From the NCBI GenBank assembly GCA_964502995.1, contig CAZCZB010000001.1, positions 45,854 through 109,853 of the forward strand: a stretch of 64,000 nucleotides of DNA, written 5' to 3'. A program made the translations under genes and the position numbers. Source of the stretch: an uncultured Dehalococcoidia bacterium. GTDB lineage: Bacteria; Chloroflexota; Dehalococcoidia; Lucifugimonadales; UBA3495. Shown here one piece after another: positions 7,481 to 53,553 of the stretch; positions within the stretch are counted from its first letter, which is position 1, and every line of letters begins with the position of its first letter. Under the pieces are notes generated by a model. It saw nothing but the letters and a program-made list of their open reading frames with translations. It was not told the origin of the DNA and did not search any database.

Positions 7481-7686
7481 GATGCCACCCCCAACGCCGT
7501 CGACGTCGACAGCTCGTGGTTTCGCAGCAAGACCGAACCGCCTGCAGGCGCTGACAGTCCGTACCATGCGATGTGATGTTATCACAAAACTCTCGGCCCT
7601 TTGATGCAGACGAACGCTCCTACCGGGGTAGCGGGAGAAACAATAGAGTTCGTCCTCGTCGGCCAATCGGCGTTAATGTGCTTCAC

Positions 7687-15057: not shown

Positions 15058-15080
15058 TCTATCCTCCTTTCCAATTCCCG

Positions 15081-16490: not shown

Positions 16491-17756
16491 CTACCACTGG
16501 ACGTACATGGGCATTACCACGTACTTGAAGGTTTCATCGTCTGGGAGGGTCCAAAGGCCGGGGCTGCTGGGATTGTTTGCCGACAGGACCAACGGCCCCT
16601 CAACGACCTTGAGCAATTCGGACACGTACTTCGAGTTGAAGGCGATGCGGCCGAGATTTTCGTCCTCACCATCCAGTCCCATGACTTCGGCGCACTGGGC
16701 CTCCCGCTTGGCGTAGCCGACATCCTCGGTCCTGGCCGACACCCGGATGATTCCCGCCATCGCCGGCCCGTCTTCAGTGCGTTCTTCCTCGGGGATGGCC
16801 GTCTGCTCCGTCCAGAAGCGGATGATGTTGCTACCGTCCACCGCGTACACTGCGGCGCTTTCCACGGCGCCCTTCAAGACTTTGGCGTCGGTCTGCACCT
16901 GCCACGTCGGGCTGTCGGGAATCAGGGGCTCATAGTTGGGAAATTCGCTGGCGATCATCTGGGTCAGCACCAGATAGCTGCCGACCTCGAACTGGGCCTT
17001 GCTGTTGTCACGGTCGATGTTCAACCGCACCGGGTCTTCGGTGGACTTGAGCAGTTTCTCCATCGCCGTGAAGGTGCGGGCCGGAATCACCACCTGTAGC
17101 GGATCCTCCATCGGCTCGGCCTCCGGTGCAATCTCCCCCGTCTGGCAGGCCGCCTCAATCAGGTTGCCCCGCTGGCAGGCCAACCGGAAACCGTCGGCTG
17201 CGGCCAGCTCGTAACCGTTGTCGTCGAGCTTGAGGCAAATGCCAGTCAACACCGGCCTGGACTCGTCCTTCGCCGCCGCCAGTTGCACCCGCCGGATGTT
17301 CCCGGCCAGCTCGTCAGGGTCGAAGAGAACCGCCACGGGTTGGTTGAACTCCGTCTCTATCGTCGGCGGGAAGTCCGCAACAGCAACGCCGTTGAACGTG
17401 GCCTCGGTGTCGTTGACGCCAGACCGGATGGTCAGAACCAGGTTGCTGCCGCCGATGCCCGGCTCGGCTTCCTCATCGACGGGGCCGACCTCAAGGTCCA
17501 GACGGTCGGAGGCGAGGGTGCGGACGAAATCGTTCAGCATCTTGTGGCTGACGCAGATCCCGCCCTCATCTTCCACCATCGCTCCGACCCAGGTGCTGAA
17601 CCCCTTCTCAAGGTCAGTGGTATCCACCCGAAGCATTCCACGGTCGGTGGTCAGTCTCACCATCTTGCAGACGGGGATGCCATCCCCGCTGGCGGTGAAC
17701 GGCTTGGCCGCCGCCAGCGCCCTGGTGAAGTTTTCCTGTAACAACGAGACTCTCAT
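16491..17756 (-). CDS. dnaN: DNA polymerase III beta sliding clamp
   Basis: 421 aa. The start (LLQENFTRALAAAKPF...VRLTTDRGMLRVDTTDLE), the three-domain length and the ending ...FKYVVMPMYV fit DnaN. Confidence 0.8.
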   Translation of the reverse strand: MRVSLLQENFTRALAAAKPFTASGDGIPVCKMVRLTTDRGMLRVDTTDLEKGFSTWVGAMVEDEGGICVSHKMLNDFVRTLASDRLDLEVGPVDEEAEPGIGGSNLVLTIRSGVNDTEATFNGVAVADFPPTIETEFNQPVAVLFDPDELAGNIRRVQLAAAKDESRPVLTGICLKLDDNGYELAAADGFRLACQRGNLIEAACQTGEIAPEAEPMEDPLQVVIPARTFTAMEKLLKSTEDPVRLNIDRDNSKAQFEVGSYLVLTQMIASEFPNYEPLIPDSPTWQVQTDAKVLKGAVESAAVYAVDGSNIIRFWTEQTAIPEEERTEDGPAMAGIIRVSARTEDVGYAKREAQCAEVMGLDGEDENLGRIAFNSKYVSELLKVVEGPLVLSANNPSSPGLWTLPDDETFKYVVMPMYVQW

Positions 17757-24268: not shown

Positions 24269-25084
24269 TTATTCCGGGAACTGCCGCCAGAGTCGCCCGC
24301 CCAACTCCGCTCCGCCCTTGCCGTTGGCGGGCGGGTCGATCTCCTTCACCGTGGCGATGCTGTAACCCCGTTCCACCACCAGCGGGTGGTTGCCATACTG
24401 ACCCCACTGTTTCCCGAACACTGCGACGCCCAGATTCAAGCATTCCACGGTGATGCTGCTTGCCCATCCCGGAGCCATCGGACGCGCTCCGGCCCCGCTC
24501 TCACCGCCCCATATCAACCAGTCGGGGACGGTGTCGTGGTCCATCAGCGTCAACGGCCCCAACGCTGGCTCGTAGCTCACGAACTTCACCACGGCGGGGA
24601 TGCTGTCAAGGATCGGCCAGCGATGGTCGTAGCGCACTTGGTCCTCGGCGGAGATCCCGAGCCAGACGTTGGGCCAACCGTCGCCCCATTCCGGTAGGTC
24701 GAACGCGCTGGGCAGCATCCGTGTGATGTTCTCGGGTCGCTTGGTCAGCAGCAGCCAATCCAAATCAGGCGTCTGGTCGATCAGCTTCCACAGCCGATAC
24801 CGCGCTCCGCATGGCGCCTGGTTGTCGAACACATCGGCCAAGGACGCGCAGAACACCCTGTGGCGCTCGCCGGCCTCCGCCGCCTTCCGGTTCCAGGCCA
24901 ACGGCTTGCGCCAGTTGGTCTCGGAGGTGATCTGGCGCGGGGCTAGTGGCCCCCACTGGACCTTGCCGAACCGGTTAGCCCAAGTCTCGGCGTAACAGTT
25001 GGTGCATCCTGGGCTGACCGGCTGGCAACCGATCCAAGGGTTCATAGTATGGTGACACCATTCTATTTTGCTGTTCTCAGCCAT
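24269..25084 (-). CDS. phage Gp37/Gp68-family (DUF5131) protein
   Basis: Start at ATG 25084. MAENSKIEWCHHTMNPWIGCQPVSPGCTNCYAETWA is the family's signature N-terminus. Confidence 0.8.
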   Translation of the reverse strand: MAENSKIEWCHHTMNPWIGCQPVSPGCTNCYAETWANRFGKVQWGPLAPRQITSETNWRKPLAWNRKAAEAGERHRVFCASLADVFDNQAPCGARYRLWKLIDQTPDLDWLLLTKRPENITRMLPSAFDLPEWGDGWPNVWLGISAEDQVRYDHRWPILDSIPAVVKFVSYEPALGPLTLMDHDTVPDWLIWGGESGAGARPMAPGWASSITVECLNLGVAVFGKQWGQYGNHPLVVERGYSIATVKEIDPPANGKGGAELGGRLWRQFPE

Positions 25085-25358
25085 CGCTATCCTCCGCATA
25101 CAACAATCGCTTTGCGGCCAGCAACGACGCCTTCACGTCCCCCCGGACCGGCAACTCCTCAATGTTTTCCAGCGCCACTTCCAGGTAGCCCAGCAGTTGC
25201 AGTCCCGGCGTAAGGCTCAGGCAATCGGGGCAATCATAGCTCGATGGCATGAAAGTCAGCGTCCCGTTGGATGCTCCGCATACTGCGTCGCCCTGGCGGC
25301 GGCCGGACACCGCAAAGTCAACTATTCGATGTACAACTCTTGTCGTGTTTTCAACCAT
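25077..25358 (-). CDS. hypothetical protein
   Basis: 93-aa ORF with an 8-nt overlap with the downstream start. Confidence 0.5.
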   Translation of the reverse strand: MVENTTRVVHRIVDFAVSGRRQGDAVCGASNGTLTFMPSSYDCPDCLSLTPGLQLLGYLEVALENIEELPVRGDVKASLLAAKRLLYAEDSDG

Positions 25359-30779: not shown

Positions 30780-31727
30780 TTAGTTCCAATCGGCCACGTC
30801 CCACCCTTTCGGGCAGGGACCGTAGCCGCCCAGGGCGCGGTACACGTCCTCGGCTTTCAGCATCTTCACGTCGCCGGCGATCCCGTCCAGGTAGTCGCGG
30901 ACGCGCAGCACGAACATCACGCCGGCGTCGTCGTTGTCGCCCATGACCAGCACTTCACGGTCTTTCAGCGGCCACCACGAGGTCGGCGCCGGCCCGCTCC
31001 CGCCCACCGGACAGGTGCAGGCGTACTGCGGCCACAGCTCGGCCGCGGCGTCCGTGGCCTTCTCGCCCTCGCAGATCAGCACCGTGGCGTCGGGCATGGC
31101 CAACAGTTCCGGCAACCGATACAGGGGCAGGATGGCGTCCTGGGTTCCGCCCAGCGCCCAGCGCCGGCCCGTCCAGGTAGCCCGACGCACTTCCTTGTCC
31201 GGGATGCCCTTTTTGTCGTTCCACGCCGGCCACCTGACCACCAGCAGGGCGATGCCGCCGTCCTTCGTGCGGTAGCGGTAGATCTCCGGCGCTCCGGTGG
31301 ACGAAATTTCCTGGTTCTCCGCCCAGAAGTCCAGTTCCTCTTTACGCGGCAACCGGGCGTCGGGCGGCGCGATCTTCAGGCGGTAGGTGGGCGGCGGGGT
31401 CTCCGGTACCGCCGGCGCCGTGGCGACGGAGCCGGTGCCACGGCTGAGCCAGTTGCTTGCCCTGAGCCACCGGATCGCGTCGCCGGCGTCGCAGCCCAGC
31501 CTGGCGGCCACCACGTCCACCACGTCGTGATAGACGCCCCCGTTGAACTCGTACCCATGCCCATCAGTGAGCGAGATCATGCAGGACTGGCCCGGTTCGC
31601 CCTGGAAGTTGCCGACCTGGAGCGTCTGCTTCCGTGAGTTGACCTTCCCAGTGGGATAGAGGCCCACCATCAACGCCCGCATGTCCGCGATCCGCTGGGA
31701 GATTGGGGGCCGTTTGTGCTGCGTCAT
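30780..31727 (-). CDS. Toprim-domain primase-like protein
   Basis: Start at ATG 31727 (AUGA overlap). VLICEGEKATDAA and VLVMGDNDDAG match the Toprim E...DxD motifs. Confidence 0.75.
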   Translation of the reverse strand: MTQHKRPPISQRIADMRALMVGLYPTGKVNSRKQTLQVGNFQGEPGQSCMISLTDGHGYEFNGGVYHDVVDVVAARLGCDAGDAIRWLRASNWLSRGTGSVATAPAVPETPPPTYRLKIAPPDARLPRKEELDFWAENQEISSTGAPEIYRYRTKDGGIALLVVRWPAWNDKKGIPDKEVRRATWTGRRWALGGTQDAILPLYRLPELLAMPDATVLICEGEKATDAAAELWPQYACTCPVGGSGPAPTSWWPLKDREVLVMGDNDDAGVMFVLRVRDYLDGIAGDVKMLKAEDVYRALGGYGPCPKGWDVADWN

Positions 31728-32092
31728 CGGCCTGCCCTCCCTGAGCGCAGCATGTGGCCCGCGCTCGGCATGGCCGCACATGCGCTACACATTGGCAGGT
31801 CCGGTGATTCCTTACGCCGGCTGCATTCGCAGAGCGACCGCTGATACTCCCGTGACTTGGCTCGGCAGGCTTCCAAGTTGCGATAGTAATAATCGCGCCA
31901 CCATTGCCGCCGCCGCTCCGATGGCAAGGAGTCTTGATATACCCTCGTGCGGCAGCTCGCCGAGCAGTAGATCTGCCGCATCCCCTTGACCTTGGGTGTG
32001 AAGGTGTTTTCGCAGCCATCGCGGGCGCACGTTCTAACCTCTGTCGTCATTACTGGACTCATGCCCTTCTCCGTTCGCATAGCGGGCCTCAC
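31724..32092 (-). CDS. zinc-finger protein
   Basis: 122-aa ORF with CARDGC...CSASC and further Cys pairs. The true start may be internal (MSPVMTTEV). Confidence 0.5.
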   Translation of the reverse strand: MRPAMRTEKGMSPVMTTEVRTCARDGCENTFTPKVKGMRQIYCSASCRTRVYQDSLPSERRRQWWRDYYYRNLEACRAKSREYQRSLCECSRRKESPDLPMCSACAAMPSAGHMLRSGRAGR

Positions 32093-32348: not shown

Positions 32349-33878
32349 TTACTCTCGTGCCGCCGGATGGACCAGCCACTTTCCGCGCTGGCCGGGGATC
32401 GGCTCGACCAAGCCCTCGGTTTCCAGGCGACGGATGGCGTCATTCCGGCGGTCTGGATCGGTACGAAAAGATCTCCAACCCAACGTCAACAGCGACCGCA
32501 GCCCGACCACCAGCTCGCCCTCGGCGTCGGTGCTGACGCCCTTGGCGCCGCTGTACACGGCGTCACCGATGGCCCTCCACGCGATGAGCGCGTCGTTGGC
32601 CTCCTGGGTTGCCATGCTCATGCTGGCCACACGGCGCAGTTCGTTGCCGTACCAGTCGGCCAGGTCAATGCCGGCCTGGGCCTCGTCCGGTGTCATGGTC
32701 AGGTCGGAGCCGGGGCTGACCGTCTGATAGCCGCGCAACGCGGTCAGCAGCCCGGCGATGCGCTGGGCGTGTTCCGTGGATCGGTTGTGCCAGCCGGCCA
32801 TGACGGTGTCCCCGTCGCCGTTGGCCGTGGCAACGAGCACGTACTCGGTCTCCAGGTACGAGCGCATCATCCCGTGGGCCTCCAGGTCCAGTGTGATGTT
32901 GGCCCGTTCCGGCGTCCGGTAGCCCGCGAATTCGACGCCGTCGTTCTGGCGCCGGAGGGCCTCCGCCATGATGCGCTCGATGCCGTTGAATCGGCGCTTG
33001 GCGTCGGCGCGTTCCTGACGGGACAGATCCGGCGGCAGGTCTTCGAGGTCCGCCTGATACGACACCAGCAACCGTTGGGCATAACCGTTGGCGGCGGCCG
33101 GGTCCATCACCCATGAAGCGAAGGGGCCGGGCTGCCCGAAAAACAGGCAGGACAGATAGCGGCCGGTGATCGTATAGTCGGTCTGATCGCGCACGCGGTT
33201 GACATGTATGCCGGTGCCGTCCCAAAGGGCGGCGTAGTCGTGCATGGTCTTGGGCCGGTTGGCGGACTTGCCGGACCAACCGTCGGTCAACGTCACCAGC
33301 TCGGTCAGATATTGCCACTGGGCGGGCCGGCCCTCCGCCAGGCATTGCATCAGGGCCTCGATGGTGGCGTCGGACCGGAGCACCTGGGGCGATGAACGGG
33401 CCGGGGCCCGGTCGGGATTGTCGTCGCGGGCGGCTTTGTCGGCGTGGGACCACCACGCCTTGGCGTCGCGCCAACGCAGGCCGACGGCGGTATCGGCCTG
33501 GTCGAATATCTTCTTGACCTCGCCCAGGGTCGAGGACTTGCGCTGTCCCGTGGGCGCGGCGCAGATCGCATAGACCTGGAGCGGGAGGTCGGGGCCGATG
33601 CCCTGCACCACGTAGTCCAGCTGAGCGACGCCGGCCAGACCCGCCAGCAGAGCCGTGCCCGCCATGGCGGGGTTGGCGCCAGTGAGTTCGTAGAGCGCAT
33701 CGACGGCATCCTGCACGACCGGCGGCAGCTTGTGCAGCGGATATGGGGCCTGATCCGGTATGCGGGCATCGAGCGTCGGCTCCGGCCACTCGATGGCCGG
33801 GAGCGCCGGCCTTGATGGGCCGTCGTCCCGTTCGGGAGGGGCGTTCGCCATTGCCGCGAGGTCGGTTGTATCAGCCAT
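32349..33878 (-). CDS. DUF3987/P4-type replicative helicase-like protein
   Basis: 509 aa. Walker-A-like ICAAPTGQRKSS. Position next to the Toprim primase, and its size, fit phage primase-helicase partners. Confidence 0.6.
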   Translation of the reverse strand: MADTTDLAAMANAPPERDDGPSRPALPAIEWPEPTLDARIPDQAPYPLHKLPPVVQDAVDALYELTGANPAMAGTALLAGLAGVAQLDYVVQGIGPDLPLQVYAICAAPTGQRKSSTLGEVKKIFDQADTAVGLRWRDAKAWWSHADKAARDDNPDRAPARSSPQVLRSDATIEALMQCLAEGRPAQWQYLTELVTLTDGWSGKSANRPKTMHDYAALWDGTGIHVNRVRDQTDYTITGRYLSCLFFGQPGPFASWVMDPAAANGYAQRLLVSYQADLEDLPPDLSRQERADAKRRFNGIERIMAEALRRQNDGVEFAGYRTPERANITLDLEAHGMMRSYLETEYVLVATANGDGDTVMAGWHNRSTEHAQRIAGLLTALRGYQTVSPGSDLTMTPDEAQAGIDLADWYGNELRRVASMSMATQEANDALIAWRAIGDAVYSGAKGVSTDAEGELVVGLRSLLTLGWRSFRTDPDRRNDAIRRLETEGLVEPIPGQRGKWLVHPAARE

Positions 33879-33913: not shown

Positions 33914-35941
33914 TCATTCCGTAGGTTGGGCGTCAGACAGCGTGGCCCGGACGAGCGCGGCCGCCAGATGGACGGGAACCGCGTTGCCGATTTGCTTCGT
34001 GACCTCGCTGATGTTGCCCACGAACTCGTACTGCGACTCCTCGTCGTCAAACCCCATGGCCCGGGCCAGCTCGGCGTTCTCCAGCATCCTGAACCGGATG
34101 TCCAGCAGGTGAGGCTGGCCGTCCACGAAAACGATGCGCCTGGGGTCGATGCCGGCTTCGACGGCCTCGCGGGCGATGTCCTCCGCGATGGTGGGCGTAA
34201 CCAGGTTGCCCGCCCCTCGACTGGTGACTTTGGGCAGCGGGTCGGACACGTCATGCACCCTCGGCTCCTGACCGGAAGCCTCGCCGAAGTTGGGCACGAT
34301 GTAGGACTGCGCCACCGGAACCGTCAGCGTCAAATCTCCCTTGGTGGTCATGGTGGGCAGTGGGCTATCCAGCGGCCGGCTATAGTCGCCGCTGCGTCCC
34401 GTCTGACTGATCCGGGCCACGATGGGTTGCGCCAACCCCAGCCCCGGCGAGGTGGTGATAGAACCCAACGGCTTATCCACCGAGTGGACACGGCGGTCGT
34501 CGCCCTTCTCCCCCTGGCTGCCGTTGCCGTGGGCCAGTTTGATCACGGCGGGGTTGGCCAGCCCATGACGCGCCTTCGTGGTAACCGTGTGCAGGGGATC
34601 GTCGATGCTGGCGGCATCGCTGTTGCCGTAGTATTCGACGATAACCGGACTGACGACGGCGTGTTTACGGCAGCCGGTGATCGCCGACAGCGGGTGAGCC
34701 GTGTCCTGGGCGAAGCTCTGGCCGTAATACTGGATGATGGTCGGGCGTACCAGCGAGATCTTGCCCGCCGTGGCGATGGTAGGGGTCGGCTCCTCGGTCG
34801 ATCTTGGCGCTCCGGCGCTCTGCTGGCCCAGCATGAAGGGCCGCAGGTCCGGCTCGACGAGAATGCTGCCGCCGCCGTGGGCCGTGGTGATACAGGGAAC
34901 CGGCTCATCGACACCCTTGGGGGCATTGTCGGTCCGGTTCGCGTTCAGGAACGGTTCGGCGTCGGTGTTCACCAGGTAGCCGCCGCCCTGGCAGGTGACG
35001 GTTGGGAACGGATCATCGATTGAATGGAAGCGGCCGGTCCCGTTCTCGCCGTGGCGATTCAGGATGAACGCCTGCGCCGGCAGATCGGCGGGATCCGCGC
35101 CGATCTCGTCTTCCAGGTCCAATAGCCGGATGTAGAGCGGGGCCAGCGGACCGCCGAAATGCTGGAGGCCCTTGGCGATGCGCCGGCGCGTCTTGGGGCT
35201 GAGCGGACGCTTCCGGTACTTGGGGTCGTCCAGCAGGGAGCGTCCCAGGTTCTCCCAGTTGATGATCTCCTTGGCCCCGCGCCAGGGTTGCCGCCCCGGG
35301 AACATCCCCGTGTCGCCCCTGGCATGGGACGGCTCGGGCCAAACCGTCGGCCTGCCGTCCTTCCGGGCCAGCAGAAAGAACCGGGTGCGCGTGGTCGCGT
35401 CGCCGTAGTCGGCGGCGTTGAGCATCTTCCACTCGGCGGTGTAGCCCAGGGCGTGGAAGGTCAGGAACCAGGCTTCAAAATGCTTGCCGCGCTGGGACTT
35501 ATCGGGCCGTCCACTTTCGTCGAGAGGCCCCCAATTCACGAACTCCGGCACGTTCTCTATGATGACGCAGCGGACATCGAGCTTGGTGAGCCAATTGTGG
35601 ATCGCCCAGGGGTTCATCCTGCCCTGGTCGTGAATGGGCTTGCCGCCCCGTGCGCGGGAGTAGAACCGGCACTCCGGGCTGGCCATCAGCAGGTCCAGCC
35701 GGCCCCCCGGTACGACGGCCTCGGGATCCACGATGCTGACGTCCTCCACCAGGTGCCTGGCCGTGGGATGGTTGGCCTGGTGTGTGGCGATAGCGGTGTT
35801 CCAGTGGTTGATTGCCACCAGGTCCATGGCGCTGCCGAGGTCCTCTATGGCGTGTTGGGCGCCGGTCGAGGAACCGCCGGCTCCACAGAAGAGGTCGGCG
35901 ACGAGGAACGTACTCTGCAAATCTATGGTGGATGCTTTCAC
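33914..35941 (-). CDS. DNA (cytosine-5) methyltransferase with an expanded, 8-fold repeated target-recognition region
   Basis: GTG start. Motif I DLFCGAGGSS, PC-type motif IV ASPECRFYS, VIIENVPEF, TTRTRFFLLA and motif X GNAVPV. Between VIII and IX there are eight D-x-P-x-x-[TS]-[IV]-T units. Confidence 0.9.
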   Translation of the reverse strand: MKASTIDLQSTFLVADLFCGAGGSSTGAQHAIEDLGSAMDLVAINHWNTAIATHQANHPTARHLVEDVSIVDPEAVVPGGRLDLLMASPECRFYSRARGGKPIHDQGRMNPWAIHNWLTKLDVRCVIIENVPEFVNWGPLDESGRPDKSQRGKHFEAWFLTFHALGYTAEWKMLNAADYGDATTRTRFFLLARKDGRPTVWPEPSHARGDTGMFPGRQPWRGAKEIINWENLGRSLLDDPKYRKRPLSPKTRRRIAKGLQHFGGPLAPLYIRLLDLEDEIGADPADLPAQAFILNRHGENGTGRFHSIDDPFPTVTCQGGGYLVNTDAEPFLNANRTDNAPKGVDEPVPCITTAHGGGSILVEPDLRPFMLGQQSAGAPRSTEEPTPTIATAGKISLVRPTIIQYYGQSFAQDTAHPLSAITGCRKHAVVSPVIVEYYGNSDAASIDDPLHTVTTKARHGLANPAVIKLAHGNGSQGEKGDDRRVHSVDKPLGSITTSPGLGLAQPIVARISQTGRSGDYSRPLDSPLPTMTTKGDLTLTVPVAQSYIVPNFGEASGQEPRVHDVSDPLPKVTSRGAGNLVTPTIAEDIAREAVEAGIDPRRIVFVDGQPHLLDIRFRMLENAELARAMGFDDEESQYEFVGNISEVTKQIGNAVPVHLAAALVRATLSDAQPTE

Positions 35942-35966: not shown

Positions 35967-36476
35967 TTATGTCTGGTAGAGCATCGGCGTCGCCGCCTTG
36001 GGCAGGTACAGCGGATGGCGGGGCGCTCCGCCCTTCGTGGTCCCGAGGCAGTACAGCGACCTGTGCCGGAACCTGCTCAACATCGTCGCCACCGTGTCTC
36101 CCCGGTCCCGGTGGTGGCCGTGGACGCCCCAGGCACAAACCGTCAACGTCGCGTTGTCGTGCATGTCCACCAGGGCATCGTCGTTGTCAGGGCCGACCGG
36201 GTCGTCGCTCTCGTAGAGCCGGTTCGGGTCGGTGGCACGGAGGGCAAAGAGGTTGCCCACCACGAGGCCGCCGAAGTCCCAGCGCCGGGCGTAGTCAATG
36301 CAGCGGCGGATGGTCGGATCATCCTGGCTGGCGTCGGCGGTGGACGGGTTCAGCATGATGAACAGGCACGACGGCTTGTCGGCGTCCCATTCGCGCCAGA
36401 GGCGGTAGCGGTACACGCCGTCGTCGGAGAGGACGGCCCCACTGGTTGGCGGAAGGTTTAGGTCTAGGGGCAACAT
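35967..36476 (-). CDS. DUF1643-family protein
   Basis: 169 aa. YRYRLWREW...CLFIMLNPSTADASQDDPTIRRCIDYA...VVGNLFALRATDP is the DUF1643 signature. Confidence 0.8.
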   Translation of the reverse strand: MLPLDLNLPPTSGAVLSDDGVYRYRLWREWDADKPSCLFIMLNPSTADASQDDPTIRRCIDYARRWDFGGLVVGNLFALRATDPNRLYESDDPVGPDNDDALVDMHDNATLTVCAWGVHGHHRDRGDTVATMLSRFRHRSLYCLGTTKGGAPRHPLYLPKAATPMLYQT

Positions 36477-38182: not shown

Positions 38183-39739
38183 TCACCTGTCTTCTGTATC
38201 CTCGTAGACCAGCGGCATTGGTAGGTTGGTCGCTTCCAGGTTGCGGCGGGCCAACGCGAGATAATCGGGGTTGAGGTCCAGGCCAACGGAACGCCGGCCC
38301 AGGCGTTGGGCGACGATGCTGGTGGTGCCCCGGCCGACGAAACAGTCCAGGACGGTGGCGGGCACGGTATCGGCGCCGCACTCGCAGGTGGGCCGCCACT
38401 GGTCGGTAGATACCATCGTTGGTTTCCACCCCGTGCTATCGGTTTTCGTTGGGCAATTCCCAGGAACATGGGCGGGCTCACGTTGATTGACGTGTCCGGT
38501 TTTCTCCGCCACGCGGACCCAGGGGTTGCCGCATTGGGCGCAGACGCCGCGCTCGCTGGTGCCGGCCAGGATGCACAGCTCAGGCAGGCGGTCGGGGAAC
38601 GAGGCGTAGTGCGTGTCCTTCCTCCCCTGCGTCGGGATCACCCACCAGTTGCGAAGGTTGGCGCTGCCGATTAGGCCGTTCGACATTGCAGACGTAAAAC
38701 CCTCATTGGCTCTAACCATGCCCGGCTCACCGACTTTGTTTTTCGACGAGGTGTTGGGGTTTTTACCAAATCGTTCTATCGTGCTATTGGCGTACGGCTG
38801 CCGGACAGCCTCAGCGTCATAGAAATAGCGGGCCTGCTTCGTCAGGTGGAACACGTACTCCACCCCCGACGTGGTGCGGTCGTTGACCGACTCCGGCATG
38901 GGGTTGGGCTTGATCCAGTGGTTGGTCTGCCGCGCGATCCAGCCGGGCGTTTCCACCGCGACGCCGTGGCTGCCCAGGCATTCGGGGCAGATAAGCCGGC
39001 CGTCGGGCCAGCGTCCGTATCTGCTCTGATGATGCGTCGCCTCGCACTCGCGGCAGGTGAGCCACGGCTGCTGCAACGCCAGCGCCACGCGGTGGGGCTG
39101 GAACACCAGGTTTTTGGCGGCCAACCCTTCCACCGGCATGTTGCCGCCACCCCAACGTCCGCTGCCCTCTCCGCGCGCAACCCGCTTCCCACGTACCACG
39201 GGGATGTTCAGGGTGCCCCGATTGGTCTTCTGTTTCTCACCGTCCGAGTGCGTCCCGTCCGCGTTCATGCCCTTGCCGCTGCCCGCGTAGGCGTCGCCCA
39301 AGTTGAGCCAGACGCTGCCGTCGTCGCGGAGCACGCGGCGGACCTCGCGCAGCACGGCGACGATGTTGGCCAGCCATTCCTCCAGGGACGGCTCCAGGCC
39401 GATGCCGGCCGATTGCTGGTGGGCACCGCAGTGTCCGCACACTCCGTTGGGCCAGTGTTCGGGAGCATCCCCGCCGTAACTCGCGGTCGTGTCCAGTCGG
39501 TCCGGCCAATCCCGCTGCTGCTGGTGGTCCCGAGCGTGTCGTATGTGGTCGCAGTGCGGGTCCCCGCCTTCCCACGTCGCCAGCCCGTAATCCCTGAGCG
39601 ACCAGTAAGGCGGTGATGTCACAACGCAGTGGACGGACTGGTCTGGGAGCGGGAGGTAGCGGGCATCGCCCTTCCGCAGCTCGACCAGGCCATTGCTCCA
39701 AACCACACTATCCGCTTGGGCTATCGGGTATTCAGGCAT
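38183..39739 (-). CDS. beta-class N4-cytosine/N6-adenine DNA methyltransferase with zinc-ribbon insert
   Basis: Motif IV VVTSPPYW is N-terminal and motif I VLDCFVGRGTTS is C-terminal (beta order). Inserted CRECEA...CPEC. Start placed at ATG 39739. Confidence 0.85.
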   Translation of the reverse strand: MPEYPIAQADSVVWSNGLVELRKGDARYLPLPDQSVHCVVTSPPYWSLRDYGLATWEGGDPHCDHIRHARDHQQQRDWPDRLDTTASYGGDAPEHWPNGVCGHCGAHQQSAGIGLEPSLEEWLANIVAVLREVRRVLRDDGSVWLNLGDAYAGSGKGMNADGTHSDGEKQKTNRGTLNIPVVRGKRVARGEGSGRWGGGNMPVEGLAAKNLVFQPHRVALALQQPWLTCRECEATHHQSRYGRWPDGRLICPECLGSHGVAVETPGWIARQTNHWIKPNPMPESVNDRTTSGVEYVFHLTKQARYFYDAEAVRQPYANSTIERFGKNPNTSSKNKVGEPGMVRANEGFTSAMSNGLIGSANLRNWWVIPTQGRKDTHYASFPDRLPELCILAGTSERGVCAQCGNPWVRVAEKTGHVNQREPAHVPGNCPTKTDSTGWKPTMVSTDQWRPTCECGADTVPATVLDCFVGRGTTSIVAQRLGRRSVGLDLNPDYLALARRNLEATNLPMPLVYEDTEDR

Positions 39740-40130
39740 AACGGTCAATCCATCGCCATTGCCACCAGGCTTCGTTGATGACCAACTCGGCCCAGAGGTC
39801 GTTTTTGTATCCATTCCACATTTGCAAGTCGCGGATCGCGGGGTCGTCGCTGTACTTCGTCAACATCCAATCACGGCCACAAAAGCGGGAGCGTGCGTCC
39901 TCAGCCATTTCCCGATCCAACCGTTGCTGCCAACGGAGAAATCGGGGGCTGGCTTCGTGGCCGGCTATCCAATCGCCCTCGGCGACGGACGCGCCGCACT
40001 TACGGCACCGCCAGCGGGGAGCCGTGCGATACTCGGTCATGTAGCGCTCGCGGTGTCCATTGCCGCACCGCGGTTTGTCAGGCGACGGCGGACCGAGCCA
40101 TGCGGGGCTAACACAGATGGCGGATGTCAT
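39732..40130 (-). CDS. hypothetical protein
   Basis: 132-aa ORF with start/stop overlaps on both sides. Confidence 0.5.
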   Translation of the reverse strand: MTSAICVSPAWLGPPSPDKPRCGNGHRERYMTEYRTAPRWRCRKCGASVAEGDWIAGHEASPRFLRWQQRLDREMAEDARSRFCGRDWMLTKYSDDPAIRDLQMWNGYKNDLWAELVINEAWWQWRWIDRYA

Positions 40131-42170: not shown

Positions 42171-42369
42171 AGCAGTTTGCCCTGCGTGTTGAGTTCACAG
42201 CGGCAGTAGCCCCCGCCATAGCAGAATAGGCAGGTCTGGCATCCAAAGCCTTCCCGTAACACTTGGCGCACAGCCAGCGTCGGACGCGATCTACTCTTGC
42301 AGAGATAATGGCGACGTTGTCGCAGTGGGTGATCCGGTCATAATCGCAATTCACGGGTCTAGGCATCAC
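42151..42369 (-). CDS. small hypothetical protein
   Basis: 72-aa ORF overlapping both neighbours. Confidence 0.4.
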   Translation of the reverse strand: MMPRPVNCDYDRITHCDNVAIISARVDRVRRWLCAKCYGKALDARPAYSAMAGATAAVNSTRRANCYDAHRV

Positions 42370-43078
42370 TAACCTCCATCAGCACAGCCCAGGACACCGG
42401 AAAAGCGCGGGCCATTTCGTCGGCAATCATTTCGGCAACTGAGCGGGTCTCGGGTTGGGCATCAGGCGCCAGCCGTTCACGGCACAGCTTCGCGTAGGCG
42501 AACAGCGAGCCGGTCCACAGCCATGTCGTCAGCGTACACACGGGCAGCACCACGCGGGCTTGCTCCGGAGCGACGCCCATCGTTATCAATTCTCGGTATG
42601 AGGACATCATCTGCGCCACGGCCATTTCCGCGATATAACGGGCGTCCCGTTGCCGAGCGACGGGAAGCCCGCTGACTTGTGGATTGCCGGATTTGCCCGC
42701 CTCTCGCCATTCCTTGGGCAATTCGACCATCGGATCACTGCTGGTGTAGCGCCGGCTGACCTCGTTGCGGGAAACGTCGTTGTCGTCAGCGAAGTCGTCC
42801 ATTTCCACGATGCCAGGCTCATCAGCCCAATACAGCGGGCTAGCTTTCAACCCCACGTGGGAACGGCGAAGCTGCCGCGCCATGTAAAAAGGTATCGTGA
42901 TGCGAAACTGCGCCTGAGGATGGTAAAACGGGCTGTTATGGCCGCTGCGGGCGAGATGGACGATCAGGCGGCTATCCTTGTCGGTAAGCGTATCGCTCTG
43001 GCGGTCGTAAGAGATCCTGGCGGCGTTCACCACCATCAGGTCGTCGCCAAACGTGTCCATTAGTTCAACTTTCGCCAT
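42359..43078 (-). CDS. thyX: ThyX-like (flavin-dependent thymidylate synthase family) protein with atypical signature
   Basis: 239 aa. GHNSPFYHPQAQFRITIP, ...EVSRRYT and EQARVVLPVCTLTTW fit the ThyX fold. The RHR motif reads RRSH and is followed by a ~30-aa insert. Confidence 0.7.
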   Translation of the reverse strand: MAKVELMDTFGDDLMVVNAARISYDRQSDTLTDKDSRLIVHLARSGHNSPFYHPQAQFRITIPFYMARQLRRSHVGLKASPLYWADEPGIVEMDDFADDNDVSRNEVSRRYTSSDPMVELPKEWREAGKSGNPQVSGLPVARQRDARYIAEMAVAQMMSSYRELITMGVAPEQARVVLPVCTLTTWLWTGSLFAYAKLCRERLAPDAQPETRSVAEMIADEMARAFPVSWAVLMEVSDA

Positions 43079-43727: not shown

Positions 43728-45494
43728 TTAGAGCAGTGCCGCGCCGGCGGGTTCCGGCTCGGTTGCTGGATCTTCGGATGTTGCCGGGTTGTTGCCGGGA
43801 ACCGGCATGGTGCAGAGCGAACACAACCCATCCTCATTGACTTGGGTGCTATCCACCTCCTCGCCGCATCCCTCACACTCCACGCGGACCGCCTGCTTGG
43901 GTCCTTCGCTTGCCTCGGCTCCGTCGCTCTTCTGGTCCGGCGCGGCGCTAGGACTGTTGGACGTCTCAGGTTCCTCGACGGCGTTGGTTGCCGTATCCTC
44001 CGCCTGGGCCACGGCCTCACCCTCAGTCGGCGGTTTTTCGGGTTCCGGCTCGACTTCCTTCACCCGAGGGTCGGAGATCAGCAACTTCGGCTTGTCCACG
44101 ACGTAGCCGCCTTCCTCGGCCGCGTCGCTGATCCGGTCCAGCAACCGTACTTTCTGCTCGCCCTCATCGAGGCGGTCGTACACATCGTTCAGCAGAGCGG
44201 TGTAGTCGGCCGCGCTCTCACAGGCGTTGATGCGGTCGCGGAAGGTCGCGCCCTTCTGATCCGGTTCCTGGGGGATTTCCCCCGTCTCGAAGTCTGCGTT
44301 GCCGAAGTCGTCATCCGCCTGGCGCTGTGGTACGCCGGCCTGGGCGCGGCGGAAATTGGCCGCGTTGGAATAGTCGTCATCGTCCGGGAGCGGAACCACG
44401 CCTTCGGGGGCGTACTCGCCGGCGTGGAGCATTTCATCCCTTTCCTCGTCCGGTTCCGGCACCACTCCCTCGCCGAGGGCCCACATGGGCGACTTTGCCG
44501 CTTCCAGGAGGTTATCCAGCTTGCCCTGCATTTTGAGTTTCAGCACGTACACCGTGATTTTCTTGCCGAACGGGGTGACGTCCTTCGGTTCCAGTGCCAA
44601 GGTCAACGGCACACCAGCGAAGTTGCCGAACAGGTTGAGGTAGGCCACGCTGTCGTAGAAGCCGGTGATGCTGTGAAAACTGCCGGTGTCGATTTGCCAG
44701 ACGCCGTAGCCATCCACATCGGGCATCAGGAACTGGAGGTTCATCACCTCGCTGCACGCGCCGCGAGGGTTGCTGTCGCTGTGATAGTCGGGGCACTCGC
44801 GGCCTCGGCAAACCACATTCGGATAGAGCTGGATGCTGCGGTCGTCGCGGTGCGGGAGCGGCCCCCACACTCCGTTGCCCATTCGGTCCACTCGCTCGGG
44901 ATTCATCTTGCGGTTGGCCCGTTCGCCGTCGCCCTTGCACACCCAGTCGCGGGTTTGCTGATAGGCTTTGTACCAGGTGGGCGCGATGACATCGAGATCC
45001 ATCGTGGGCAGGACGATGGTGAGTTCCTTCGGAAACTCGCCGTACACTTCCCTCACCTCCGGCGGGCAAACGAAGTAGTCGGTCTTGGCCGGGTATTCGT
45101 TACCGTTGGAATGCTTCTTCTTAATGCCGAGCCGGATCTTGCCGATGCGGGGCAACATCCTTTGCCGGTCGTGAGTCAGTCCTCTGATGGGCATGATTTT
45201 GATCTCCTCCAAGTAGGGTTCTAGCGTGCGAAACAGTCGGATGTGTTTGCAGTGGGTCAGTTTCGGCTGGCGCCGATATTTGAAGTCAGCACATCCGCAC
45301 CAGTCCAAAGTCGTCTTGTAGTGAAGCAGTCGCTCCAGAGCGTGGACGAGCTGCTCCTTGGTCAGTGCGTCTGACACGGCGGCATGGGCTGCCTCGCTCT
45401 CCTGGATGCCAACCACCGGTTCCGCGACCAGAGCAGGGCACCCAGCATCGTGCTGGCCATCGCCGAAAAGGACGCCGGCGCAGTCGCAGTCCAT
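43728..45494 (-). CDS. SWIM-zinc-finger-containing large protein with acidic C-terminal half
   Basis: Start at ATG 45494. CGCADFKYRRQPKLTHCKH gives CxC...CxH (SWIM). An internal strong RBS (GGAGGAG) precedes ATG 45194 (MPIRGLTHDRQR...). Confidence 0.6.
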   Translation of the reverse strand: MDCDCAGVLFGDGQHDAGCPALVAEPVVGIQESEAAHAAVSDALTKEQLVHALERLLHYKTTLDWCGCADFKYRRQPKLTHCKHIRLFRTLEPYLEEIKIMPIRGLTHDRQRMLPRIGKIRLGIKKKHSNGNEYPAKTDYFVCPPEVREVYGEFPKELTIVLPTMDLDVIAPTWYKAYQQTRDWVCKGDGERANRKMNPERVDRMGNGVWGPLPHRDDRSIQLYPNVVCRGRECPDYHSDSNPRGACSEVMNLQFLMPDVDGYGVWQIDTGSFHSITGFYDSVAYLNLFGNFAGVPLTLALEPKDVTPFGKKITVYVLKLKMQGKLDNLLEAAKSPMWALGEGVVPEPDEERDEMLHAGEYAPEGVVPLPDDDDYSNAANFRRAQAGVPQRQADDDFGNADFETGEIPQEPDQKGATFRDRINACESAADYTALLNDVYDRLDEGEQKVRLLDRISDAAEEGGYVVDKPKLLISDPRVKEVEPEPEKPPTEGEAVAQAEDTATNAVEEPETSNSPSAAPDQKSDGAEASEGPKQAVRVECEGCGEEVDSTQVNEDGLCSLCTMPVPGNNPATSEDPATEPEPAGAALL

Positions 45495-46015
45495 CAGAAC
45501 TCTCCGTGCTCCTGCCCGTCCCAGCCCACATAGATTGGGAACTCCGGCAACTCGACAGGTTCGGGTTCGCGGTGCATCTTCATGCGCCCGAACACATCGC
45601 CCGGATTGCACCGATCGCAGGCGGTGAGCCAATGGACCGCTTCAAAAAGTATCCCGGTGGGCACGCCGCAGAAATCGCAACGCGCCGCATCGATTTGGTG
45701 AATGAACGTATCGGACGGCTCACGCTCTTCCAATTCGCGGCCGTCAAAAAATGGGTTGTACCTACCGTCGCTATACCGCCAATGCCCTGCTTGCCACCAC
45801 GCCTGGTGACTGCGCCGTTCGGGTCGGGGCTGCGACGGGCAGGCGGGGTAGCAGACAAGGCGCCAGTTGTGGCCGATGATGCCGCGGTCCTCGGTTCCCC
45901 ATTTGGAGCGTCCCCCCTTGCCGCAGAGATCGCACAGGGCAGCGTCCCAAAAGAACCGGAATGGTGCCAACGGTGCCAGCTGCCCGAGGTAGTATGACGA
46001 TTCAACGATGTTCAT
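45494..46015 (-). CDS. Cys-rich hypothetical protein with C-terminal ELPEFPIYV..GQEHGEF tail
   Basis: Start at ATG 46015 (RBS GGAGG). The tail is shared with the 19596..20258 product. Confidence 0.55.
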   Translation of the reverse strand: MNIVESSYYLGQLAPLAPFRFFWDAALCDLCGKGGRSKWGTEDRGIIGHNWRLVCYPACPSQPRPERRSHQAWWQAGHWRYSDGRYNPFFDGRELEEREPSDTFIHQIDAARCDFCGVPTGILFEAVHWLTACDRCNPGDVFGRMKMHREPEPVELPEFPIYVGWDGQEHGEF

Positions 46016-50792: not shown

Positions 50793-51899
50793 ATGCCACT
50801 TGAAGAAAGCATCCACTCCCTCGCTGCACGACTGCCCGACGTCCTGTCTCTGATAGAAACCGAGGAGGGCACCAAGAACGCCCTGGTGCTCCCCTTCATC
50901 GCGGCGCTGGGCTACAACCCATTCGACCCGAATGAAGTCATACCTGAGTACGTCGCCGACGTGGGGATCCGGCGCGGCGAAAGGGTTGACTTTGCCTTGA
51001 TGCGGGACAGAGAGCCTATCATCCTCTTTGAGTGCAAGGCAGCTAACGTCAACTTGGGCGATAGCCACATATCGCAACTGTTTCGCTACTTCACCACCAC
51101 GCCGGTCCGCATCGGCGTGCTCACCAACGGCGTCGTTTATCGGTTCTTTTCGGACCTGGACAAAGCCAACACCATGGACCAGCAGCCTTTTCTCGAAGTC
51201 AACCTGGCGGAGTTGGACGATGCAACGGTCGCTGTACTGCACCGTTTCGCCAAAGGTTCCTTTGACGCGGAACGGACCATCGAGGCAGCCCTCGATCTGA
51301 AATACACCAACTCAATCCAACAGGTGCTGGCCGAAGAGTTCGCCAACCCGTCCGGCGAGTTGGTCCGAATGATAGCGCGGCGGGTCCATGGCAGCAGCGT
51401 ACCACAGGCAGTAATCAAGAGATTCGAGGCGTTGGTCAAGGACGCATTTGCTCGGTTCATCAACAAAAGAACCGAAGCCCGTCCTCAGTCCGGTCCCGAA
51501 CCGGACGGGTCGGGGACATCCACAGAAGAGGCTATTGCACAACACCGCCCGAACCCGGCGCCCGTGGAGCTTCCCATTGACTTGTTTATGGAACCGGGCG
51601 TCGGTATGTATTCGAGGGCGCGACTGGAGGACGATGGCTTTACCGTTGTCGTGCTTGCCGGGTCAGCGATTTGCGCGCACGAAAGGCGGACAGCTGGACT
51701 CGTCGTTTCCGAACAAAGAAGAGACGCCCTGGAGCGGGCCACATGGGTTGAAGATGGCGAACACTATCAACTGACGCAAGACTACAGATGCACATCGCCT
51801 ACCAACGCGGCCACTTTCGTCTTGGGGTGGCACGCCAATGGTCGTCAATGGTGGACAGATGCAGACGGCAGAAAGCTGGCCCAAATCCTGAACGGCTGA
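50793..51899 (+). CDS. restriction-endonuclease-like (HSDR_N-type PD-(D/E)xK) protein with C-terminal DUF4357-like domain
   Basis: EEGTKNALVLPFIAALGY...VDFALMRDREPIILFECKAANVNL...QLFRYF matches the type I R N-terminal fold. The C-terminal FTVVVLAGS...TSPTNAATFVLGWHANGRQWWTDADGRKL resembles DUF4357. Confidence 0.65.
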   Translation: MPLEESIHSLAARLPDVLSLIETEEGTKNALVLPFIAALGYNPFDPNEVIPEYVADVGIRRGERVDFALMRDREPIILFECKAANVNLGDSHISQLFRYFTTTPVRIGVLTNGVVYRFFSDLDKANTMDQQPFLEVNLAELDDATVAVLHRFAKGSFDAERTIEAALDLKYTNSIQQVLAEEFANPSGELVRMIARRVHGSSVPQAVIKRFEALVKDAFARFINKRTEARPQSGPEPDGSGTSTEEAIAQHRPNPAPVELPIDLFMEPGVGMYSRARLEDDGFTVVVLAGSAICAHERRTAGLVVSEQRRDALERATWVEDGEHYQLTQDYRCTSPTNAATFVLGWHANGRQWWTDADGRKLAQILNG

Positions 51900-51928: not shown

Positions 51929-52405
51929 TTGACGACAAGGGAGACTACTTTGAAAACTAGGACCACTTTGCTTGCCGCCTTTGCGGTGGTCGTCGCCATC
52001 GTTGGGGCGTGGTTCTCTGCCGGCGCGAGCGTCTCCGCGCACCAGCCTGACGTTTATCAGATTGATCAGAGCAATGCACCTGATCCCCCCTGCACCTTCT
52101 ACCACGACGATGCCTGTGAAATCGCCGCTACCCCAGGAAGTTTGACTATCTCTGAGTCGAACTGGGCCGGGCAATCCCATGGACTCGATACCCAACTCAG
52201 CGCCGCGCAAGCGCACTTTCAGAACCTTACCGGCTTCGCCGAACTAAAGGGGCAGGTGAACGACCACATCGTGCCAAGCGTCACCCGCTTACTTGTCGCA
52301 AGCGGCGGGACCGATACTTCGAGCGGAGATGTGAGCTACGCCATAACCTCAGACATCACCGGCCTGCCGTGGATCGCGGAGGCGGAGTACCAGGTACTGC
52401 CTTAG
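51929..52405 (+). CDS. secreted hypothetical protein
   Basis: 158 aa. Signal-like TLLAAFAVVVAIVGAWFSAGASVSA. Confidence 0.5.
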   Translation: MTTRETTLKTRTTLLAAFAVVVAIVGAWFSAGASVSAHQPDVYQIDQSNAPDPPCTFYHDDACEIAATPGSLTISESNWAGQSHGLDTQLSAAQAHFQNLTGFAELKGQVNDHIVPSVTRLLVASGGTDTSSGDVSYAITSDITGLPWIAEAEYQVLP

Positions 52406-52425
52406 GTCAGACCGACATCAACCCC

Positions 52426-53553
52426 ATGGCCGGCCAGATAACACAACGCAAGCCCGGCGTCTGGAAGCTCGTCGTCAACCTCGGCCGCGATACCCAGGGC
52501 ATCCGCCGGCGCCGCGCCTTCACCGTTCACGGCACCCGCCGCGACGCCGAGCGACGCCTGCGTGAAATCCTGACCGACCTTGACCGCGGCGTCGCTCCGC
52601 CGGAACACATCACCTTGGCCGAGTGGCTCGACCGTTGGATGCGGGAGGTCATCGTCCCTCAGCGGAGTGTGGCCACCGCCGAGCGGTACGAGGGCATCAT
52701 CCGCAAGTACATTGGCCCAGCCCTCGGCCATCACGAATTGGCCCGACTATCGCCCCTGCGGATCAAGCGGTTCCAGGACGAGATGCTCGATGACGGCCTG
52801 TCGCCCTCGTCAGTGGGCCTGATGCACATCATCATTTCGGGGGCCTACCGCTACGCCATGATGCTGGAGGTAGTCCAGCGCAACCCCGCGTCGGCGGTGC
52901 CGGGCCCACCCCGCGTTCGGGGCGCAATCGACGTACCCGAGGTCGAATACGTTCAGGCGATGCTGGACCTGGCCGAACGCGAAAAGCACCTGTTGTTCCC
53001 CATGATCCACGCCATCGCCTACACCGGAATGCGCCGGGGCGAGGCCATCGCGCTGACGTGGGACGACGTCGACCTGGACAACGGCTATTTGGAGATAACC
53101 CGTTCGGCGGGCTGGCGACGGGCCGGGCTGGTCATCTCGTCGCCCAAGACTGCCGCCGGCGCCCGCATGGTGGACCTGGACCCGAGGACGATTGAGGTGC
53201 TGCTGGACCACCGGAAGTGGCAGGCCGCTTACATCGCGGACCATGCCGGCTACTACGACAACCGGGGCATATTGTTCGCTGACGAAAAAGGCGGCTATAT
53301 CAAGCCCAACCGGGTGTCGCGGACTATTGGGGACCTTGGTCGGAAGGTCGGCCACCCCCGAATGACGACCCACTCCCTGCGCCACTTCCACGTGACGATG
53401 CTGTTGCAATCGGGGTTCCACGAGGCCATCGTCGCCCAGCGCGCCGGCCACGCCAATTCCTCAATCACCCGGACGGTGTACGCCCACGCACTGCCCGGCT
53501 GGCAACGCGAAGCGGCGGAAGCCTTCGGTAAGGCTATGGAGCGTGGAGCGTGA
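52426..53553 (+). CDS. int: tyrosine integrase
   Basis: Start at ATG 52426 (MAGQITQRKPGVWKLVVNLG). AYTGMRRGEAIALTWDDVD (Arg I), HSLRHFHVT (H-x-x-R) and RTVYAH (Tyr). Confidence 0.9.
   Translation: MAGQITQRKPGVWKLVVNLGRDTQGIRRRRAFTVHGTRRDAERRLREILTDLDRGVAPPEHITLAEWLDRWMREVIVPQRSVATAERYEGIIRKYIGPALGHHELARLSPLRIKRFQDEMLDDGLSPSSVGLMHIIISGAYRYAMMLEVVQRNPASAVPGPPRVRGAIDVPEVEYVQAMLDLAEREKHLLFPMIHAIAYTGMRRGEAIALTWDDVDLDNGYLEITRSAGWRRAGLVISSPKTAAGARMVDLDPRTIEVLLDHRKWQAAYIADHAGYYDNRGILFADEKGGYIKPNRVSRTIGDLGRKVGHPRMTTHSLRHFHVTMLLQSGFHEAIVAQRAGHANSSITRTVYAHALPGWQREAAEAFGKAMERGA

Follow-up and report, generated by a model that had tools for sequence, protein, structure and literature searches.

A split C5-cytosine methyltransferase on a Dehalococcoidia mobile element belongs to a phage family with long arrays of candidate target-recognition units

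This report concerns a gene for a C5-cytosine methyltransferase (C5-MTase) in a 64,000-nucleotide stretch of DNA, the window, from an uncultured Dehalococcoidia bacterium (GenBank assembly GCA_964502995.1, contig CAZCZB010000001.1, positions 45,854 to 109,853). The gene occupies positions 33914..35941 of the window on the minus strand. According to the list of open reading frames (ORFs), it encodes 675 amino acids, begins with GTG and has its stop codon at 33914-33916. It sits on an integrated mobile element that carries a methyltransferase arsenal, and no restriction gene adjoins it, making it an orphan. The protein contains eight small tandem repeat units between its catalytic parts, in the variable position of the target-recognition domain (TRD). 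Arrays of this kind, with 4 to 12 units, characterize a family found in phages of Proteobacteria, Actinobacteria, Firmicutes, Cyanobacteria and Chloroflexota, and we consider here whether the units may be alternative TRDs.

The gene and its catalytic core

Judging by its sequence, the gene product is a C5-cytosine DNA methyltransferase with all catalytic motifs. Motif I is LFCGAGG (residues 17-23), motif IV is SPEC (residues 88-91, with PEC at 89-91 and the catalytic cysteine at Cys91), motif VI is ENV (129-131), motif VIII is TRTR (184-187), motif IX is RFRMLENAELARAMGF (616-631), and motif X is GNAVP (652-656). Two of these are variants, PEC in place of PCQ in motif IV and TRTR in place of QxRxR in motif VIII, and both are kept across 106 homologs. 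The identical 675-residue gene call was obtained on two independent Logan contigs.

Profile searches agree with this assignment and show where the protein departs from ordinary enzymes. With 103.4 bits, the match to Pfam PF00145 exceeds the cut-off of 22 and falls into two pieces, an N-terminal part (residues 14-198) and the C-terminal end. NCBIfam TIGR00675 ('dcm') reaches 93 bits, below its cut-off of 100.65, because the N-terminal part alone aligns. The phage profile phrog_116, 'DNA methyltransferase', matches over the full length (E=6.6e-70). C5-MTases in the PDB (DNMT1, M.HaeIII and 3g7u) match residues 14-207 and 604-666 of the query and nothing between, the C-terminal matches with DNMT1 and M.HaeIII beginning at residue 604 or 617.

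Based on these matches and on a full-length AlphaFold2 model from a 107-sequence alignment, in which the catalytic parts were confident, we divided the gene as follows; all of its segments are on the minus strand. The N-terminal catalytic part (residues 1-200; 35342..35941) holds motifs I, IV, VI and VIII and the Pfam match, and its predicted local distance difference test score (pLDDT) is mostly 80-97. A conserved linker leads from motif VIII to the array (residues 201-288, WPEPSH...; 35078..35341), with a pLDDT of about 66-80 and predicted helices at 240-244, 249-262 and 264-272. The C-terminal catalytic part (residues 584-675 plus the stop codon; 33914..34192) comprises a predicted helix at 583-595, motifs IX and X and the PDB matches. 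Between motifs VIII and IX lie about 430 residues, made up of the linker (about 201-288), an array of 295 residues (289-583), and a helix and strands running into motif IX.

An array of eight repeat units

Residues 289-583 consist of eight tandem units of 32-42 residues each. A unit has a hydrophobic strand, a first loop, a core of the form [D/E]xPxPT[IV]T[TS], a glycine-rich second loop, and a short strand with a terminal proline. The first strands of units 1 to 8 read FILNRHG, PFLNANR, PFMLGQQ, TIIQYYG, VIVEYYG, VIKLAHG, IVARISQ and YIVPNFG, and the proline of the PxxT core falls at residues 311, 347, 385, 417, 449, 491, 527 and 568.

We examined the repeat with a leave-one-out test, in which each unit in turn was scored with a hidden Markov model (HMM) made from the other seven, with 500 shuffles of that unit as the control. 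All eight units scored above all 500 of their own shuffles, with 7.2-33.7 bits compared to shuffle maxima of 3.8-15.3. The eight-unit repeat is confirmed. An earlier note on this DNA, made by a model from the letters and a list of ORFs, had named the catalytic motifs and quoted one peptide for each of eight units; all of these motifs are present in the ORF, and all eight peptides lie within residues 289-583. It had also described the variable region between motifs VIII and IX as about 330 residues built of eight units; the units stand, and the length must be corrected to the value given above.

The units are described here with their type letters, which come from the clustering reported below, and with their leave-one-out scores followed by the shuffle maximum. 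The units were placed by the unit HMM. Unit 1 (residues 289-325; 34967..35077) is of type B (FILNRHGENG...DDPFPTVTCQGGGYLV) and scores 23.9 bits against 6.4. It is followed by unit 2 of type G (residues 328-364; 34850..34960; PFLNANRTDNAPK..DEPVPCITTAHGGG; 16.0 against 6.6) and unit 3 of type C (residues 366-400; 34742..34846; PFMLGQQSAGAPRS..EPTPTIATAGKISLVRP; 17.4 against 7.8), whose signature GQQS..PR is conserved at 90% or more. Unit 4, of type D (residues 398-432; 34646..34750; TIIQYYGQS...HPLSAITGCRKHAVVSP), has the most deviant core, HPLSAITG, and the weakest leave-one-out score of the eight (7.2 against 5.1). The highest score belongs to unit 5 of type F (residues 430-464; 34550..34654; VIVEYYGNSDAASIDDPLHTVTTKARHGLANP; 33.7 against 15.3). 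Unit 6, of type A (residues 466-506; 34424..34546; VIKLAHGNGSQGEKGDDRRVHSVDKPLGSITTSPGLGLAQP), has a longer first loop and scores 20.1 against 3.8. Unit 7, of type H (residues 505-542; 34316..34429; SQTGRSGDYSRPLDSPLPTMTTKGDLTLTVP; 12.3 against 6.1), shows the lowest conservation of all (0.45) and is the unit most often missing from close relatives. Unit 8, of type E (residues 542-583; 34193..34318; YIVPNFGEASGQEPRVHDVSDPLPKVTSRGAGNLVTP; 15.5 against 7.7), has the highest conservation among the units, 0.70. No tandem repeat was found at the DNA level within the gene, which argues that the unit duplications are ancient.

Unit types and modular evolution

Clustering of 1018 units from 120 close homologs at about 45% identity gave 11 clusters (nine main types and three singleton-level units), and the architecture of the query in these terms is B-G-C-D-F-A-H-E. 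Each type has its own conserved residues in loops 1 and 2, for example GQQS..APR, NFGER.GQEPRVHD, KARHGL and NKHGL. The signatures are LNRHGENG for B; ANRNNN.PK...TTAHGGG for G; GQQSGGAPRS...DGAISL for C; YYGQS...NKHGL for D; YYGNS...TTKARHGLANP for F; NHGNG...RRVHS for A; QTGGNG.Y.RP...TLTTKNDM for H; and NFGER.GQEPRVHD...VTSRGAGSL for E. Many of these type-specific loop residues are at least 90% conserved across the 106 homologs. Mean identity to the query across homologs is 59% in the array, compared to 78% in the N-terminal catalytic part (106 homologs), 70% in the C-terminal part and 71% in the linker. As judged from these alignments, the array evolves faster than the catalytic core, yet it is clearly constrained. 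Conserved loop residues within an array of 59% identity indicate that the units are under selection and are not decaying.

Where relatives share 70-80% overall identity, what separates them is the clean insertion or deletion of single segments of 27-52 residues, mostly 32-42, which is about one unit. Unit H (query residues 507-546 or 508-547) is missing from homologs P0005, P0006 and P0008, and query residues 283-320, essentially unit 1 of type B, are missing from P0003. Conversely, P0012 has an inserted 38-residue unit of type I, and P0009 has three insertions, of 36, 32 and 40 residues. Architectures among the relatives include BGCDFAE, GCDFAHE, BIGCDFAHE and BGBCDDFAAHE. The order of units also changes. 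In the distant homologs P0127, P0134, P0139, P0172 and P0230, type E (FGER.GQEPR) is internal and type F (TTKDRHAL) comes last, while in the query F precedes a terminal E. In P0159, type C stands before type G, unlike the query, in which G comes before C. Gain and loss of whole units together with permuted order are expected of independent modules and would be poorly tolerated by a single cooperative domain. The comparison thus supports the view that the units behave as discrete, positionally independent modules.

A large family in phages

The protein in the window is an ordinary member of a large family, and it is the family rather than this copy that is of interest. More than 3700 homologs are present in the protein database. 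By tblastn, full-length relatives (28-40% identity, at least 80% coverage) occur in 182 phage records, with hosts that include Bradyrhizobium, Microcystis, Nostoc, Myxococcus, Burkholderia, Pseudomonas, Klebsiella, Escherichia, Aeromonas and Mycobacterium. All of the query's nearest genomic relatives come from metagenome-assembled genomes of Dehalococcoidia/Chloroflexota. The 120 closest homologs, which are 51-100% identical to the query, have 588-843 residues and 6-11 units, and unit number follows protein length (r=0.81).

When a profile of the units alone was searched against 1.84 billion cluster representatives (clusters at 50% identity), it matched 3001 proteins at E<=1e-3, of which 1679 passed E<=1e-10 and 317 passed E<=1e-30; individual proteins contained as many as 12 matching stretches. 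The best 150 matches were ranked by summed score and are hence biased to long arrays; the 83 complete proteins within them have 5-12 units, with a mode of 8. In 83 of these 83, the array lies between the ENV of motif VI and the GN[AS][VI] of motif X. Among individual phages, gp10 of Pseudomonas phage F116 has eight units, the homolog in Klebsiella phage 5 LV-2017 has seven, and gp59 of Mycobacterium phage Xavia and the homolog in an Acetoanaerobium phage have four each.

Some members have further features. Six of eight long members scanned (907-1066 residues) contain inteins (Hint plus a LAGLIDADG homing endonuclease) inside the catalytic domain. The carriers are P0213, P0205, P0200, P0143, P0192 and P0260; the intein starts near residue 86-91 in five of them and at about 128 in P0192, apparently around motif IV. 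P0195 (1066 residues, about 10-12 units) is extended at its C terminus by a segment with a weak Pfam match to PRAI (phosphoribosylanthranilate isomerase), which may be a gene-calling fusion. In F116 (AY625898.1, 4903-8620), the gp10 homolog is flanked on both sides by annotated DNA adenine methyltransferases, forming a three-methyltransferase cassette.

Similarity to the Bacillus phage enzymes

The closest known enzymes are those of the Bacillus subtilis temperate phages SPR, phi3T, rho11s, H2 and SPBeta (M.SPRI, M.Phi3TI, M.Rho11sI, M.H2I and M.SPBetaI). They are likewise orphan C5-MTases of phages or prophages with one catalytic domain; between their motifs VIII and IX they too carry contiguous tandem modules of about 40 residues, all with a PT[ILV]T-type core, and their modules are also shared and exchanged between relatives. 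They differ in size, with 439-503 residues and 2-4 TRD-like elements by our own segmentation, versus 675 residues and eight units in the query and 4-12 units in its family. Unlike them, the query family has a conserved linker of about 90 residues before the array and the PEC and TRTR variants of motifs IV and VIII. When the SPR TRD region served as a tblastn query, nearly all records returned were from Firmicutes phages (with one Croceibacter match), and none came from the query's family.

We compared the unit types with a set of ten enzymes: those of SPR, rho11s, H2 and phi3T, together with six others from Firmicutes phages that have TRDs in common with these four. These ten end their variable region with a conserved last TRD element, ...PVLTPER.EKRQNGRRFK..gEP.FT[LV].[ST].D[RK]HG[VI].... 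Type F aligned to it in hhalign with a probability of 90.7% (P=1.3e-6, score 29.4), and none of 200 column-shuffled controls reached the real score (mean 8.0, standard deviation 2.0, maximum 17.1). The type-F HMM also picks the same last element in 10 of 10 of the enzymes. These alignments show a significant similarity between type F and the last TRD of the SPR/phi3T/rho11s/H2 enzymes. Type D, which is related to F, aligned to the last TRD of the SPR family with 55% (P=1.2e-4), and type B reached 42% with a TRD of the SPTLTTMGGG type. The remaining six types and the generic unit profile stayed at or below 12% against the Bacillus phage TRDs. Outside types F and D, then, the unit types of the query have no significant similarity to these TRDs. 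Significance was reached solely in the comparison of a single unit type with a single TRD family; the unit HMMs scored the Bacillus enzymes at no more than 4.7 bits, always in register on their SPT[IL]TT cores. No similarity was found between the HhaI-like TRD group of Firmicutes phage enzymes and any of the nine unit types.

The last TRD element is the only one common to the SPR, phi3T, rho11s and H2 enzymes, and all four methylate GGCC. This fits the assignment of GGCC to the last TRD of SPR and phi3T, reportedly made by Wilke et al. 1988. If that assignment is right, unit 5 (type F) would be a candidate GGCC reader.

The earlier note had likened the array to the tandem TRDs of the SPR/phi3T/rho11s kind, described those enzymes as having fewer modules, and held that eight would mean either an exceptionally broad self-protection enzyme or a different repeat-built DNA-reading architecture. 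Whole-unit insertions and deletions and the permuted unit order argue against the second of these. The likeness is borne out by the TRD position, by the modular independence of the units and by the similarity of type F to the last TRD; eight modules, being the mode of a large family in phages of five phyla, are not exceptional.

Other C5-MTases offer partial parallels. M.BssHII, M.(phi)BssHII and M.BceSV, from Bacillus and relatives, are prophage-associated enzymes for which methylation of several different sites has been reported, and the TRDs of M.(phi)BssHII occupy separated locations. The most multispecific case known to have been characterized reads five sites. M.HhaI, M.HaeIII and DNMT1 have the same catalytic fold and motifs as the query and a single TRD, compared to about 300 extra repeat residues in the query; their TRDs were undetected by the unit profile or the F-type profile. 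Searches of PDB sequences with the joint type-F and Firmicutes profile gave no methyltransferase match, and with unit 8 plus the C terminus, motifs IX and X alone were matched.

Proposed function and alternatives

We regard it as an even call that the protein is an orphan, mobile-element-encoded multispecific C5-MTase whose units are alternative TRDs, protecting the DNA of the element from many Type II restriction enzymes. The one catalytic domain is split by an array of eight small modules, and in this proposal each is an alternative TRD. A single module at a time would engage the catalytic domain on the DNA and thereby define the sequence in which a cytosine is flipped out and methylated. 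Several different short sites, up to about eight, would in this way become methylated by the enzyme, and the DNA of the element would be pre-protected against many host Type II restriction enzymes, as with the SPR, phi3T, rho11s and H2 enzymes. The location of the array in the variable position between the catalytic parts counts in favor of the units being TRDs. We infer that the units may bind DNA, that most may be active, and that each may have a specificity of its own. A stronger version, in which most or all units are independently active TRDs, reading about eight sites here and up to twelve in relatives, is tentative and somewhat doubtful. With one TRD per unit, the array would exceed the module number of any characterized multispecific enzyme known to us.

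Several observations weigh against this proposal. Structure prediction, which the earlier note had put forward as a check on the repeat region, succeeded for the catalytic parts and failed for the array; in the full-length AlphaFold2 run, residues 279-585 had a pLDDT of 25-48, leaving the array model unusable. A run on units C-D-F (98 residues, with orthologous and paralogous triplets aligned) was equally unusable, with a mean pLDDT of 44. Such low values would fit flexible beads on a string and would fit a lack of signal equally well. The generic unit profile is only weakly related to the pooled Bacillus TRDs (hhalign 12%, P=0.0025), and against PDB sequences this profile, built from 62 units, found no C5-MTase TRD and only chance matches (PhzF, E~0.4). 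From the sequence comparisons, a supported link to a known TRD appears limited to types F and D. We found no experimental methylation data for any family member in the searchable literature. The proposal also requires eight or more modules to take turns on one catalytic domain. Finally, pseudo-TRDs exist in the Bacillus enzymes, so some units may be inactive.

This last point leads to an alternative that we consider unlikely: the array may hold few active readers among relics, with one to three functional TRDs and the rest pseudodomains or spacers that serve folding or spacing, giving few specificities. Lange et al. 1991 reportedly documented inactive pseudo-TRDs in rho11s/H2-type enzymes. Unit 4 with its degenerate core and low score, and unit H, poorly conserved and dispensable in many close relatives, look like plausible relics, and the restriction of known TRD resemblance to types F and D would also fit. 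Relics would not be expected, however, to behave as these units do across the 106 homologs. The loop residues particular to each type are conserved at 90% or more, the deviant core of type D (PLS.IT) is conserved as such with no decay, and units are lost cleanly rather than eroded.

Less probable still is a single composite repeat domain, in which stacked units would read DNA collectively and the enzyme would have one long or degenerate site or methylate nearly without specificity. The last strand of each unit abuts the first strand of the next (...GLANP|AVIKL...) and could form a continuous sheet with it; no independent fold was predicted for a unit or a triplet, and non-specific or frequent-cutting phage adenine methyltransferases exist, for example, M.EcoGII. 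A cooperative reader of a single site, however, would not tolerate variation from 4 to 12 units, whole-unit insertions and deletions even among proteins 70-80% identical, or the permuted unit order between lineages, and one unit type, F, is similar to a self-contained TRD of the SPR type. A closed propeller-like domain was also considered and rejected, as arrays of 4-12 units that change in one-unit steps misfit a closed ring.

Very improbable is a role that is not primarily anti-restriction, in which the enzyme, multispecific or not, serves packaging, replication control or gene regulation of the element: regulatory or packaging orphan phage methyltransferases such as P1 Dmt are known (2025 review) and the gene lies within a replication module (DUF3987 primase/helicase-like protein, sliding clamp and ThyX), but regulatory methyltransferases are typically monospecific and stable in architecture, whereas rapid gain, loss and shuffling of modules and the other methyltransferase genes in the element fit an arms race with restriction systems.

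Relation to prior knowledge and significance

For 35 years, tandem TRDs in one C5-MTase have been regarded as an oddity of a few Bacillus phages. We know of no structure of any multispecific C5-MTase. A 2025 review describes arrayed TRDs as a known anti-restriction strategy of Bacillus temperate phages, and these are the sole cases cited there. In the literature we searched, including reviews from 2020-2025, arrayed TRDs are credited only to phages or prophages of the Bacillus group. The same search, which left REBASE outside, returned no description of a C5-MTase family with 4-12 units across phyla or of long TRD arrays, and a Klebsiella pneumoniae methylome paper makes no mention of prophage C5 enzymes. 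The principle of tandem TRDs is known; the aspect that appears new is a long-array family that spans phyla.

If the units are TRDs, the strategy would be a widespread phage counter-defense, its arrays exceeding those studied so far by a factor of two to three in length, and the question of how one catalytic domain serves many alternative readers would become sharper. Were most or all units independently active, no other known DNA methyltransferases would come near these enzymes in multispecificity. The family, which comprises at least 3000 clusters at 50% identity and occurs in phages of five or more phyla, would then amount to a natural combinatorial library of DNA-reading modules of about 35 residues. 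Assignments of type to motif could be read from natural variants that differ by one unit, and the thousands of natural module combinations could yield a module-to-sequence code for writers of 5-methylcytosine. Such a code would help to annotate methylomes, to get past restriction barriers in genetic engineering and to design methyltransferases. Should the units instead form one composite domain, this would be a new repeat-based architecture for reading DNA in a very common class of enzymes.

Genomic context

The C5-MTase gene lies between a DUF1643 gene (35967-36476) and a DUF3987 gene that is primase/helicase-like (32349-33878), both on the minus strand. The order DUF1643, C5-methyltransferase, DUF3987 is identical on Logan contigs L001 and L002 (SRR8304783 and SRR8304784), and the presence of the same trio in two separate sequencing runs indicates that the element was present in those samples. 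The surrounding 50 kb or so is mostly on the minus strand.

Within 3 kb of the C5-MTase gene there is an N6_N4 DNA methyltransferase of 543 residues (38183-39814, minus strand), whose N6_N4_Mtase domain is split by an insert at residues 61-424; it has a further Methyltransf_25/11-like domain at its C terminus. A ThyX gene (239 residues; 42359-43078, minus strand) adjoins a gene for a 634-residue protein with a Gp3-like recombination-directionality-factor (RDF) domain at residues 163-368 (43728-45632, minus strand), the rest of which has no Pfam or PHROG match. A DUF5131 gene (24269-25099) and a primase/helicase-like gene (30780-31781) lie on the other side. Farther along are genes on the minus strand for a sliding-clamp homolog (16491-17756), an LPD29 domain protein ('large polyvalent protein-associated domain'; 15081-15671) and a primase-like ORF (14299-15165), a combination that suggests an early/establishment module of the polyvalent-protein type. 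ParB is encoded at 2357-3325. At the opposite end, a tyrosine integrase gene (52369-53553) is preceded by an endonuclease-family gene (50793-51899), both on the plus strand. The element is likely a prophage. Phage structural genes were absent from the roughly 40 ORFs of the window that were scanned, and no tRNA that could mark an attachment site was found anywhere in the window.

No restriction gene was found adjoining the C5-MTase gene; the only gene of restriction type that was seen lies between transposases at a distance of 26 kb and encodes a fused N6-type enzyme. This enzyme is an 884-residue fusion of HSDR_N_2, N6_Mtase and an Eco57I/MmeI-like methyltransferase (5012-7666), with an adjoining DDE transposase (7687-9174) and a second transposase (phrog_506; 12325-13602) and a resolvase nearby; all three listed genes are on the minus strand. 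Together, the fused restriction-modification-type protein and the transposases have the appearance of a mobile Type IIG/IIL-like system inserted into the element or next to it. Beyond about 54 kb, the scanned ORFs include aminotransferase-family and methyltransferase-family matches.

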